In this document: in pieces, positions 1 through 2,740 of the stretch
Layout: each line of letters starts with the position of its first letter
How positions within the stretch are numbered: position 1 is the stretch's first letter
Source: Escherichia coli
GTDB lineage: Bacteria > Pseudomonadota > Gammaproteobacteria > Enterobacterales > Enterobacteriaceae
NCBI RefSeq assembly: GCF_003334765.1
Contig: NZ_QOWT01000001.1
DNA length: 64,000 nt
Strand: one strand, 5' to 3'
Notes under the pieces: generated by a model
Seen by the model: the letters and a program-made list of their open reading frames with translations, nothing else
What the model was told of the DNA's origin: nothing
Databases searched by the model: none
Program-made: the position numbers and the translations under genes

Positions 1-602
1 TCATGGTGCAACTGCTTCAAATTAAAACTCTGGTCTGACTTCAAATAATTATCATATTATTTATTTGCGTAACGGGATATCAGAAAAAGATATTTACCCC
101 ATTAATTTATTAGGATGTTTACATCGGATTTGTGATTAAGCGTGGTATTATTTATTAGCGAAACGTTTCTCTCTTGATTTTTTTGCTCATTCATCAATTT
201 TTCTTATTTTAAATTTACAATCCCTTTGGGGATTGACTTCTCTTTAGGGTAATTAATAGCCGTTAACTGACTGTTTTATGAGAAAAAGTGATATAACTTT
301 TTATTCATTGCATAGCAAAAAATGTGATATTGCACGCACTATGTAATAACTTCTCCCACTGGCCTGGAACAACTGAACTTATTGAACTATGTTAGAAAAT
401 ACGCCAGTTTAAGTATCTGCCTGAACTGGCAAGGTTAAGCACAATGATATATCGGCGCGTATTCCGTTGCATAAGTGTGCAAAAAAAGTGGAAGACGTAT
501 CGAGATTTGTGCGTCTGATCGAGACATGTTTAAAAATGGCTTGCCATAATTAACGTTGTATGTGATAACAGATTTCGGGTTAAACGAGGTACAGTTCTGT
601 TT

Positions 603-746
603 ATGTGTGGCATTTTCAGTAAAGAAGTCCTGAGTAAACACGTTGACGTTGAATACCGCTTCTCTGCCGAGCCTTATATTGGTGCCTCATGCAGTAATGT
701 GTCAGTTTTATCTATGTTATGCCTGCGGGCGAAGAAAACAATCTAA
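603..746 (+). CDS. yobF: Small protein YobF (47 aa), co-transcribed with cspC
   Basis: ATG 603 to TAA 744-746 translates to [47 protein letters not shown]; lies 12 bp upstream of cspC; not in ORF track (below length cutoff); recognised as K-12 YobF. Confidence 0.8.
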
Positions 747-758
747 GGAATTTTTCAA

Positions 759-968
759 ATGGCAAAGATTAAAGGTCAGGTTAAGTGGTTCAACGAGTCT
801 AAAGGTTTTGGCTTCATTACTCCGGCTGATGGCAGCAAAGATGTGTTCGTACACTTCTCCGCTATCCAGGGTAATGGCTTCAAAACTCTGGCTGAAGGTC
901 AGAACGTTGAGTTCGAAATTCAGGACGGCCAGAAAGGTCCGGCAGCTGTTAACGTAACAGCTATCTGA
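759..968 (+). CDS. cspC: Cold-shock-domain protein CspC
   Basis: 69-aa ORF with RNP1/RNP2 motifs KGFGFI and VFVHF; full-length match to remembered CspC. Confidence 0.95.
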
Positions 969-1013
969 TCGAATCCACTGATCTGAAGTGTGAATACGCT
1001 TCAATCTCGCTAT

Positions 1014-1041
1014 AAAGCCTCGTCGAATGCGAGGCTTTTTA
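1014..1041 (+). terminator. Rho-independent terminator downstream of cspC
   Basis: GC stem agcctcg / cgaggct around loop tcgaatg, followed by TTTTT (1036-1040). Confidence 0.7.
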
Positions 1042-1133
1042 CTATGCTTTATCTTCGCTCCTGGCGTTCGGATATTTGCCCGCCGCGTGATTCGCGTTAC
1101 ACTTGCGGCCTTTAGTATCCTGCCGGAGTTGTC

Positions 1134-1943
1134 ATGTCTTTTTCCTGTCCACTTTGCCATCAGCCTCTTTCGCGTGAAAAAAACAGCTATATCTGTCCCC
1201 AGCGACATCAGTTTGATATGGCGAAAGAAGGGTATGTCAATCTGCTGCCCGTTCAGCATAAACGGTCTCGTGATCCGGGCGACAGCGCGGAAATGATGCA
1301 AGCACGCCGCGCATTCTTAGATGCCGGACATTATCAGCCGCTGCGTGATGCAATTGTCGCCCAACTGAGGGAACGGCTTGATGATAAGGCCACGGCGGTG
1401 CTGGATATTGGCTGTGGTGAAGGGTATTACACACACGCATTTGCCGATGCGTTGCCCGAAATCACCACGTTTGGTCTGGATGTTTCGAAGGTAGCGATAA
1501 AAGCGGCGGCGAAACGCTATCCGCAGGTCACTTTTTGTGTCGCTTCCAGCCACCGTTTGCCGTTTTCCGATACCAGTATGGACGCCATAATACGTATTTA
1601 CGCGCCGTGTAAAGCAGAAGAATTAGCACGAGTAGTGAAGCCCGGCGGCTGGGTCATTACTGCCACGCCGGGACCGCGACATTTGATGGAGCTGAAGGGG
1701 CTGATTTACAATGAAGTACATCTTCATGCACCTCATGCAGAACAACTGGAAGGTTTTACATTACAGCAGAGTGCGGAGTTGTGTTATCCGATGCGTCTTC
1801 GCGGTGATGAAGCCGTCGCATTATTGCAGATGACGCCGTTTGCCTGGCGTGCGAAGCCAGAAGTCTGGCAAACACTGGCAGCAAAAGAAGTGTTCGACTG
1901 CCAGACGGACTTTAATATTCACCTCTGGCAGCGTTCTTATTAA
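1134..1943 (+). CDS. rlmA: 23S rRNA m1G745 methyltransferase RlmA
   Basis: 269-aa ORF; N-terminal Zn-finger CPLCHQPL...CPQRHQF; SAM-binding motif LDIGCGEG. Confidence 0.9.
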
Positions 1944-2506: not shown

Positions 2507-2740
2507 GACAATGTCCTGACCGGGGTATCCATAAAACACATCATCGCCCCCAGCAAACATGCATACATGAACAACAAGCCGTGATGGTTTTCGCGTTCAT
2601 GCAGGCATAGCGATTGATGTGCATATGGTCTCGCCTGACTGAAAGTATTCAGTCCGTACGTGCCACGTTTTGCAACGAGTATGTTGACACGTACATTTCC
2701 GGAATCTGGAAATCGGCTACTCCCCAAATGAGGGCGCAAC
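2507..2740 (-). promoter_or_regulatory. mntP 5' leader, expected to carry the yybP-ykoY Mn2+ riboswitch
   Basis: Long untranslated leader upstream of mntP; riboswitch assignment is from established knowledge of the E. coli mntP leader; fold not verified here, boundaries approximate. Confidence 0.5.

Follow-up and report, generated by a model that had tools for sequence, protein, structure and literature searches.

What lies between yebO and cspC in Escherichia coli, and is it conserved as a gene or as part of an mRNA? The window, the whole 64,000-nucleotide stretch of E. coli DNA that was analyzed (contig NZ_QOWT01000001.1 of assembly GCF_003334765.1), begins 68 bp past the stop codon of yebO and runs on through a short open reading frame (ORF), yobF, into cspC. 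An earlier note on this DNA had read yobF and cspC as a bicistron behind a long, structured 5′ leader. Here we ask how long the leader is, whether it is structured, and what kind of constraint acts on yobF.

Gene Layout of the Locus

Over its first 2 kb the window matches E. coli K-12 strains at 100% identity, and 5,424 of the 5,426 complete E. coli genomes carry the segment. A window position x converts to 1908194 - x in NC_000913.3, where the window reads as the minus strand. The locus is the known yobF-cspC operon of K-12, ordinary and described before. Its genes and the ribosome-binding site between them are as follows.

603-746, plus strand: yobF coding sequence, ATG at 603 to TAA ending at 746, 47 aa, b1824 in K-12 (ORF list, PF10736 match, and K-12 annotation)
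759-968, plus strand: cspC coding sequence, 69 aa, b1823 in K-12 (NF008190 match; typical coding signature)
745-749, plus strand: cspC Shine-Dalgarno (SD) sequence AAGGA (read from the sequence; predicted ~77% unpaired)

YobF residues 1 through 38 match positions 1 through 38 of PF10736 (DUF2527/DUF2627; E = 2e-30), a 38-position family profile that is carried by 73 of the 74 YobF homologues. CspC scores 170.2 bits against the NCBIfam model NF008190 (cut-off 137), the best of 12 csp models. The two genes share one reading frame and are separated by 12 nt (747-758), and the yobF stop codon TAA (744-746) overlaps the cspC SD (TAAGGA, 744-749). Both ORFs, the gap, and the family matches thus agree with the earlier description of a 47-codon yobF 12 bp upstream of cspC. 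The statement that no convincing ORF precedes yobF also holds: K-12 annotation places no feature in the 669 bp between yebO and yobF, and window 1-602 contains short ORFs only, with nothing annotated. The largest ORF of this region, of 68 aa on the minus strand (435-641), has no family match.

The absence of yobF from the ORF track had been remarked on correctly; the gene is simply shorter than the usual length cut-off (the default minimum is 60 aa, and yobF appears when it is set to 20 aa). The track lists two other ORFs over this region.

643-957, plus strand: out-of-frame shadow ORF, not a gene, 104 aa, TTG start (no family match; unstable open span)
717-1301, minus strand: antisense shadow ORF, not a gene, 194 aa, TTG start (no family match; unstable open span)

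In 111 species among the matches listed, the frame of 643-957 stays open for 33 to 150 codons and that of 717-1301 for 66 to 199 codons (median 103); the window alone among the species listed has at least 190 codons open in the minus-strand frame. With no family matches and no maintenance of the open frame elsewhere, both are spurious, as had been suspected, shadowing a gene that is conserved and highly expressed. Length-filtered ORF tracks can therefore lose short annotated genes such as yobF yet list shadow ORFs over the strongly expressed cspC.

Promoters, Transcription Starts, and Terminator

Transcription start sites (TSSs) were taken from the TSS-seq data of Kim et al. 2012 (supplementary file 2; PMC3415461). 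The strongest start maps to window position 577 (249 reads), a second to 401 (107 reads), and a minor one to 630 (11 reads), 129 nt before cspC. Combined with the sequence, they define the following elements.

577-602, plus strand: main TSS and 26-nt 5′ untranslated region (UTR), with the yobF SD GAGG (586-589) and the OxyS/CyaR pairing site (PMC3415461; duplex calculation)
401, plus strand: distal TSS, giving a 202-nt leader (PMC3415461)
630, plus strand: minor internal TSS inside yobF (PMC3415461; the literature cites a promoter, cspCp8)
541-569, plus strand: proximal promoter P1, with -35 TTGCCA (541-546), a 17-nt spacer, and an extended -10 TGtGATAAC (561-569) (correct spacing to TSS 577)
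364-393, plus strand: distal sigma-70-type promoter P2, with -35 TGGAAC (364-369), an 18-nt spacer, and -10 TATGTT (388-393) (read from the sequence; spacing fits TSS 401)
467-482, plus strand: inverted repeat TTGCA-N6-TGCAA in the 202-nt leader, -110 to -95 relative to P1 (conserved island, unconserved flanks)
1014-1038, plus strand: intrinsic terminator of the operon (10-bp stem, ΔG -14.3 kcal/mol, z = -3.8; conserved across species)

The leader is 26 or 202 nt long, not more than 600 nt. P1 is nearly invariant in about 110 species among the matches listed, and an RpoN gSELEX peak maps within it, to approximately window position 566. In P2 both hexamer blocks are conserved across genera and their flanks are not. 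Conservation begins only at about position 360, at this distal promoter; window 1-340 has 28 to 32% G+C and is mostly unconserved. No strong terminator was found between yebO and yobF, and the sole terminator-like hairpin of the gap (218-235) was rejected as a conserved yebO terminator because it lacks conservation. Read-through from yebO may be possible, though the TSS data do not show such transcripts.

The bicistronic arrangement is borne out. The genes lie on the same strand, the main TSSs precede yobF, no terminator-like site is present between the genes (603-758), and the terminator after cspC is conserved and aligns with the terminator of the Rfam cspA model. Published polarity agrees: in Salmonella, a yobF deletion is polar on cspC, and the pair is treated as an operon. 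A start mapped directly upstream of cspC that excludes yobF had been named as the observation that would speak against a bicistron; an internal start of this kind does exist at 630, but its 11 reads make it a minor one.

Predicted Folding of the Leader

We compared the predicted folding of the leader with that of shuffled sequences. Segment 577-779, from the P1 transcript, folds at -41 kcal/mol against a shuffle mean of -45.8 (z = +1.18), that is, worse than its shuffles; segment 401-620, from the P2 leader, reaches z = -1.07, and 31 of 200 shuffles fold as well. The accessibility of the SD and AUG was predicted from partition functions between 15 and 47 °C. At 37 °C the yobF SD has a predicted unpaired probability of ~0.24 (about 75% paired) and the cspC SD one of ~0.77 (mostly open). 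Between 30 and 42 °C the predicted unpaired probability in the P1 transcript moves from 0.27 to 0.23 for the yobF SD and from 0.25 to 0.35 for the yobF AUG; no marked SD opening, and hence no temperature switch, is predicted anywhere from 15 to 47 °C. The proposal of a structured leader is supported neither by the z-scores nor by the barely shifting predicted SD accessibility. RNAalifold analysis of 85 unique leaders likewise revealed no stable structure shared among them, returning a covariation term of -0.09 with only one pair changed on both sides; with these species, this test of conserved structure is powerless because almost all leader columns are invariant.

Comparison with the cspA Thermoregulator

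Rfam nevertheless labels the mRNA a thermoregulator: positions 583-1043 reach 135.5 bits with RF01766 (cspA thermoregulator), whose gathering score is 78. Sub-region searches locate the source of this score. Positions 717-1043 alone reach 145 bits over RF01766 model positions 120-428, so the score rises when the leader is removed, and a search with 380-770 alone returns no cspA match. The segment of the model that refolds with temperature (positions 1-119) contributes nothing to the score, which is due to the cspC coding region, the terminator, and a short hairpin, and not to the yobF part.

720-731, plus strand: small hairpin U-GCC-UGCG-GGC-G, ~13 nt before the cspC SD, at the position of the cspA-family GCCGAAAGGC hairpin (high posterior probability in the alignment with the hairpin of the cspA model)

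This hairpin would correspond to the "upstream box" described for cspA; its closing pair varies among UG, CG, UA, and AU across species. By eye the yobF region had also looked like the cspA 5′UTR, but local alignments of the cspC leader with the cspA, cspG, cspB, cspI, and cspE leaders give z ≤0.8 against dinucleotide shuffles, which is chance level. Apart from the hairpin and SD module, the yobF region was rejected as a homologue of the csp leaders on this basis, and the Rfam match, in view of the sub-region searches, as evidence for a thermosensing leader. The cspC gene is not known as a cold-induced csp gene. For users of Rfam, the consequence is that the cspA model labels the yobF-cspC mRNA a thermoregulator above threshold though its leader does not match.

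Translation, YobF Protein, and Small RNA Regulation

Ribosome profiling has revealed a more than 100-fold difference in translation efficiency within the operon, with cspC above yobF. The distance from the yobF SD to the start codon is long (given as 21 in an aligned-spacing table), and the contrast between a paired yobF SD and an open cspC SD, both as predicted, fits this gap in efficiency.

Published work has connected the yobF ribosome-binding site with two small RNAs (sRNAs). OxyS represses a yobF::gfp translational fusion via pairing near the SD, a first-hairpin-loop mutation weakening the effect, and this repression also lowers downstream cspC. CyaR copurifies with yobF mRNA, as well as with the neighboring yebO and mgrB mRNAs; its repression of yobF has been published, yet was not reproduced in one reporter system. 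We scored sRNA duplexes in 24-nt windows against shuffles; these replaced whole-length RNAduplex predictions for OxyS and CyaR, which gave long-loop duplexes no better than shuffles and were discarded. OxyS nucleotides 5-28 pair with 577-600, including the SD, at ΔG -26.6 kcal/mol (shuffle mean -15.9; 0 of 40 shuffles as good). The CyaR duplex is weaker: nucleotides 15-37 pair with 587-610 at ΔG -19.1 kcal/mol, a value that 5 of 40 shuffles reach, around a contiguous core (CUGUACC:GGUACAG) at approximately 588-594.

Epitope tagging has revealed the YobF protein, which is recovered in the membrane fraction. Heat shock induces it posttranscriptionally, and low Mg induces it as well. Deletion of yobF causes a growth defect in low Mg that a plasmid rescues only when the yobF ATG is intact; this complementation in trans shows that the YobF peptide has some role in E. 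coli. The possibility, raised earlier, that yobF goes untranslated is therefore at odds with both the detected protein and the need for an intact ATG. Work on aging colonies, which cites the promoters yobFp1, yobFp2, and cspCp8, has also identified the operon as a hotspot of adaptive mutations, IS insertions among them.

Conservation of the Operon across Species

Homologous loci were collected by a pattern scan of one genome per species for codons encoding VEYRFSA[DE]P (yobF codons 16-24), which returned at least 120 loci. Because the pattern demands these conserved codons, diverged yobF is undersampled. After three chance matches outside Enterobacterales were dropped, 117 real loci remained among the matches listed, and about 110 of them have yobF immediately before cspC; the remaining loci were too short or yielded no successful cspC call. 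The linked loci span at least 25 genera of Enterobacteriaceae, Yersiniaceae, and Pectobacteriaceae, including Escherichia, Salmonella, Citrobacter, Klebsiella, Enterobacter, Yersinia, Serratia, and Brenneria. The conserved order in Enterobacteriaceae is mgrB-yebO-gap-yobF-cspC-rlmA. Many genera carry a 333-aa gene inserted after yebO and still have ~500 nt of noncoding DNA before yobF; a tblastn search of window 1-620 found no remnant of that gene in E. coli.

The distance from the P1 start to cspC codon 7 is nearly constant across the species listed (202 to 209 nt), and the sequence from about 507 to 968 is almost invariant, with flanks at mean minor-allele frequencies of 0.4 to 0.5. Within this block, yobF divides into two parts.

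603-716, plus strand: conserved core of yobF, codons 1-38, constrained at the nucleotide level (codon-position variability; pN/pS)
717-746, plus strand: yobF tail, whose frame varies between genera (YobF length classes; indels)

Residues 1 through 38 of YobF are highly conserved and the tail is not. Indels of 1 to 2 nt and stop-codon changes generate length classes of 38, 43, 47, and 56 aa, and 57 of 110 species among the matches listed carry a 1-nt insertion before position 719. Despite these frame shifts, the nucleotides beneath the tail stay conserved; they comprise the hairpin and the stretch leading up to the cspC SD. The ORF is intact through codon 38 in ~95% of the species listed and broken in six, where the surrounding nucleotides are still conserved: by a frameshift (locus L044), by the same frameshifting indels in two Superficieibacter species (L045 and L052), by a stop at codon 25 (L062 and L093), and by loss of the start codon (L120).

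Substitution Pattern of yobF

Variation in cspC is concentrated at third codon positions, and in yobF it is not. The mean minor-allele frequency over 577-716 is 0.04 to 0.05 in about 110 species among the matches listed. By codon position (1/2/3) it is 0.053/0.039/0.046 for yobF codons 1-38 and 0.005/0.001/0.133 for cspC, the latter a classic coding signature. Variable columns fall 16, 16, and 11 by codon position in yobF, a distribution for which uniformity is not rejected (p = 0.56), and 6, 5, and 53 in cspC (non-uniform, p = 5e-16). The third-position share is thus 26% in yobF versus 83% in cspC in the same genomes (Fisher p = 5e-9).

Nei-Gojobori proportions were computed relative to E. 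coli with the nine pattern-fixed codons left out. They give pS 0.125 and pN 0.077 for yobF (pN/pS ratio 0.62), pS 0.317 and pN 0.002 for cspC (0.008), and pS 0.713 and pN 0.178 for rlmA (0.25; 11 species); the synonymous sites of yobF thus evolve at a rate lower than that of cspC by a factor of 2.5 and lower than that of rlmA by a factor of ~6. The bias introduced by the search pattern works against this result, because it fixes the first and second positions of nine codons and leaves the third free. An overlapping gene in another frame was rejected as the cause of the conservation, since the yobF region lacks codon-phase periodicity in any phase on either strand and the 68-aa antisense ORF has no family match.

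From these substitution patterns, the yobF core appears to be constrained mainly as nucleotides, probably as the leader of the cspC mRNA; we infer that this nucleotide-level constraint reflects a cis-acting RNA function for cspC. A ratio of 0.6, being below 1, may also indicate some amino acid constraint, and a peptide layer and an RNA layer probably both exist. The constraint on synonymous sites is a modest new observation.

A Model of the Operon and Its Alternatives

Taken together, the data very probably describe a two-promoter operon in which yobF is weakly translated and repressed by sRNAs, cspC is translated independently, and the 5′ ~140 nt act mainly as an RNA leader. Two sigma-70-type promoters, the stronger proximal one starting at 577 and the distal one at 401, drive transcription to the hairpin at 1014-1038. 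The yobF cistron is poorly translated. A long distance separates its SD (GAGG, 586-589) from the AUG, most of this SD is predicted to be base-paired, and the repressing sRNAs OxyS and CyaR dock on it. Ribosomes initiate on cspC independently of yobF and with far greater efficiency, at a separate open SD that overlaps the yobF stop and follows the small conserved hairpin. The first ~140 nt of the main transcript, comprising the 5′UTR and yobF codons 1-38, would be mainly a sequence-constrained RNA leader for cspC, taking in the sRNA docking site and anything else that binds there; the YobF peptide would be read out of this leader. The gene identities, spacing, TSSs, terminator, sRNA complementarity, linkage, and substitution pattern are the parts of this model that rest on the present data or on published papers. 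A bolder version takes 577-716 to be an ultraconserved, largely unstructured cis-acting RNA module that would govern the stability or translation of cspC mRNA, for instance by binding Csp proteins, Hfq, or sRNAs, with the YobF peptide secondary and its amino acid conservation mostly a by-product; we consider this plausible, if somewhat short of probable.

The main competitor to an RNA leader is that yobF is an ordinary coding gene in a plain two-gene operon, its odd substitution pattern being an artifact of short length, biased sampling, and low counts. YobF is detected, associates with membranes, and complements in trans, the ORF stays intact to codon 38 in ~95% of the species listed, the sampling was pattern based, and each pair offers only two to five synonymous differences. 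The sampling bias opposes the observed result, however, and pN/pS is 0.62 with the pattern codons excluded; the third-position share (26% versus 83% in cspC, Fisher p = 5e-9), the six species listed that retain nucleotide conservation around a broken ORF, and the nucleotides kept under a tail that shifts frame make this explanation unlikely. Less likely again is that yobF acts as an upstream ORF controlling cspC translation, by reinitiation at the overlapping SD or by melting of a helix between 684-688 and the cspC AUG. Such coupling would suit the overlap of the yobF stop with the cspC SD, the RNAalifold pairing of UGCC (685-688) with GGCA at the cspC start, and a cspC AUG that is predicted to be only 0.13 to 0.17 unpaired at 30 to 37 °C. 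It sits poorly with the more than 100-fold more efficient translation of cspC, which implies that most initiation is independent of yobF ribosomes, and with a stop that, depending on the genus, falls anywhere between 83 nt before the cspC ATG and 14 nt into cspC; the predicted helix never varies and so lacks support from covariation.

Two further alternatives bring in temperature sensing by the transcript. Membership in the cspA thermoregulators (RF01766), with a temperature-dependent switch of structure like that of cspA mRNA, is suggested by the whole-mRNA match (135.5 bits versus the gathering score of 78), by the 182 nt from TSS 577 to the cspC ATG (near the ~160 nt of cspA), and by the hairpin and SD module common to both; it is very improbable given that 717-1043 alone scores 145 bits (model 120-428), that 380-770 alone has no match, that leader alignments stay at chance (z ≤0.8), and that no temperature switch is predicted. 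The last, and the least credible of all, takes the long structured leader first proposed to exceed 600 nt and possibly to sense temperature. A noncoding gap of at least ~500 nt before yobF is indeed kept across genera, no canonical terminator follows directly after yebO, and the heat-shock induction of YobF is reported to be posttranscriptional. The TSSs at 401 and 577 largely refute it; 1-340 is AT-rich and mostly unconserved, the z-scores are +1.18 and -1.07, and the yobF SD goes from 0.27 to 0.23 unpaired between 30 and 42 °C, with no melting switch predicted.

Significance

Published work and the K-12 annotation already cover the operon together with its promoters, its sRNA regulators, and YobF, and the finding of the bicistron as first submitted matters little. 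For work on small proteins it is worth noting that YobF, used to exemplify small proteins that are conserved and induced by stress, is here conserved without a coding signature, so that conservation alone should not be read as evidence for peptide function. The yobF sequence may matter for CspC, a global RNA chaperone, and the locus is a recurrent target of adaptive mutations.

Relation to Known Systems

The locus does not differ from the K-12 yobF-cspC operon (b1824-b1823): sequence, gene order, spacing, and promoters are all identical, and the K-12 promoters carry the names yobFp1, yobFp2, and cspCp8 (EcoCyc/RegulonDB). With the cspA thermoregulator the operon shares a csp gene behind a leader of 160 to 180 nt, a GCC-loop-GGC hairpin 10 to 15 nt before the SD, and a homologous coding sequence and terminator. 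In contrast, the 5′ two-thirds of the yobF-cspC leader has no match in cspA and holds a translated ORF, and no temperature switch is predicted.

Leader-peptide attenuators such as mgtL, pheL, and tnaC likewise place a short ORF in the leader of a downstream gene on one mRNA. Unlike these, yobF-cspC has no terminator/antiterminator pair between ORF and gene, its ORF is translated far less than cspC, and the YobF peptide has a phenotype of its own. The resemblance to sRNA-repressed ribosome-binding sites is closer: OxyS and CyaR are both complementary to the yobF SD region, with OxyS spanning the 26-nt UTR. Here, however, repression at yobF lowers the second gene, cspC, which may be the physiologically relevant target. 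Finally, the constraint on synonymous sites and the lack of three-base periodicity in yobF are like those of coding sequences that double as cis-acting RNA elements, but in yobF the constraint extends over all 38 codons of the core and is not confined to one discrete motif.

Early Codons and Reading Frame of yobF-cspC

The yobF start (603 through 607) reads AUGUG, an overlapping-start context in the PMC9841429 catalogue; the entry for yobF gives a long SD spacing and does not predict ambiguity. Immediately 3′ of the small RNA pairing site (OxyS, 577 through 600; CyaR, 587 through 610), within the first codons of the gene, lies AGUAAAGAAG (618 through 627), a run of consecutive A-R-N triplets that is without variation in all 85 unique cspC leader sequences. 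Hfq binds motifs of this type through its distal face, and the segment is a candidate site.

yobF and cspC (603 through 968) share the same reading frame, offset from each other by 52 codons. PF10736 and PF00313 occur together in a few database proteins (P0054, P0064); these are apparently read-through or fusion calls in which the stop or the frame differs.

Matches to Rfam Models

The cspA thermoregulator model (RF01766) exceeds its gathering threshold at 583 through 1043 solely through homology to the csp coding region and terminator; automatic annotation would therefore mislabel the mRNAs of csp paralogues as thermoregulators. A second model matches further along the window:

2637-2733, minus strand: Mn2+ riboswitch (yybP-ykoY, RF00080), upstream of mntP

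At 41.6 bits this match falls slightly below the gathering score of 45, and it is without most of the long terminal hairpin and loop of the model (model positions ∼96 through 170). It is presumably the known mntP riboswitch.

Conserved Repeats Upstream of yobF

Two symmetric elements are conserved upstream of the gene:

160-169, within 156-171: perfect 10-bp palindrome, GAAACGTTTC
467-482: inverted repeat TTGCA-N6-TGCAA, a conserved island with unconserved flanks

The palindrome GAAACGTTTC is kept across 34 Enterobacteriaceae intergenic regions, within a spacer that is AT-rich and otherwise unconserved; it carries no annotation and has no obvious target promoter. The element at 156 through 171 resembles a Cra/FruR-type (LacI-family) operator, TGAAACGTTTCA, and its assignment as such is putative. 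The inverted repeat lies inside the 202-nt leader, ∼100 bp upstream of the main transcription start (577); it may serve as a binding site for a transcription factor or form a small hairpin in the RNA.

Insertions Around yobF-cspC

In many genera, Cedecea, Mangrovibacter, and several Enterobacter-like isolates among them, yebO and yobF are separated by a same-strand gene of 333 aa (yobF-cspC loci L021, L006, L013, and related ones). The gene is absent from this position in E. coli, where a remnant is not detectable. When positions 1 through 2000 of the window are compared with E. coli genomes, each of the best 10 matches is broken into two or three pieces, the interruptions being IS1, IS2, IS4, IS5, or other insertions; several of these 10 are K-12 laboratory derivatives. 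The split matches agree with the reported hotspot of IS insertion at yobF-cspC.
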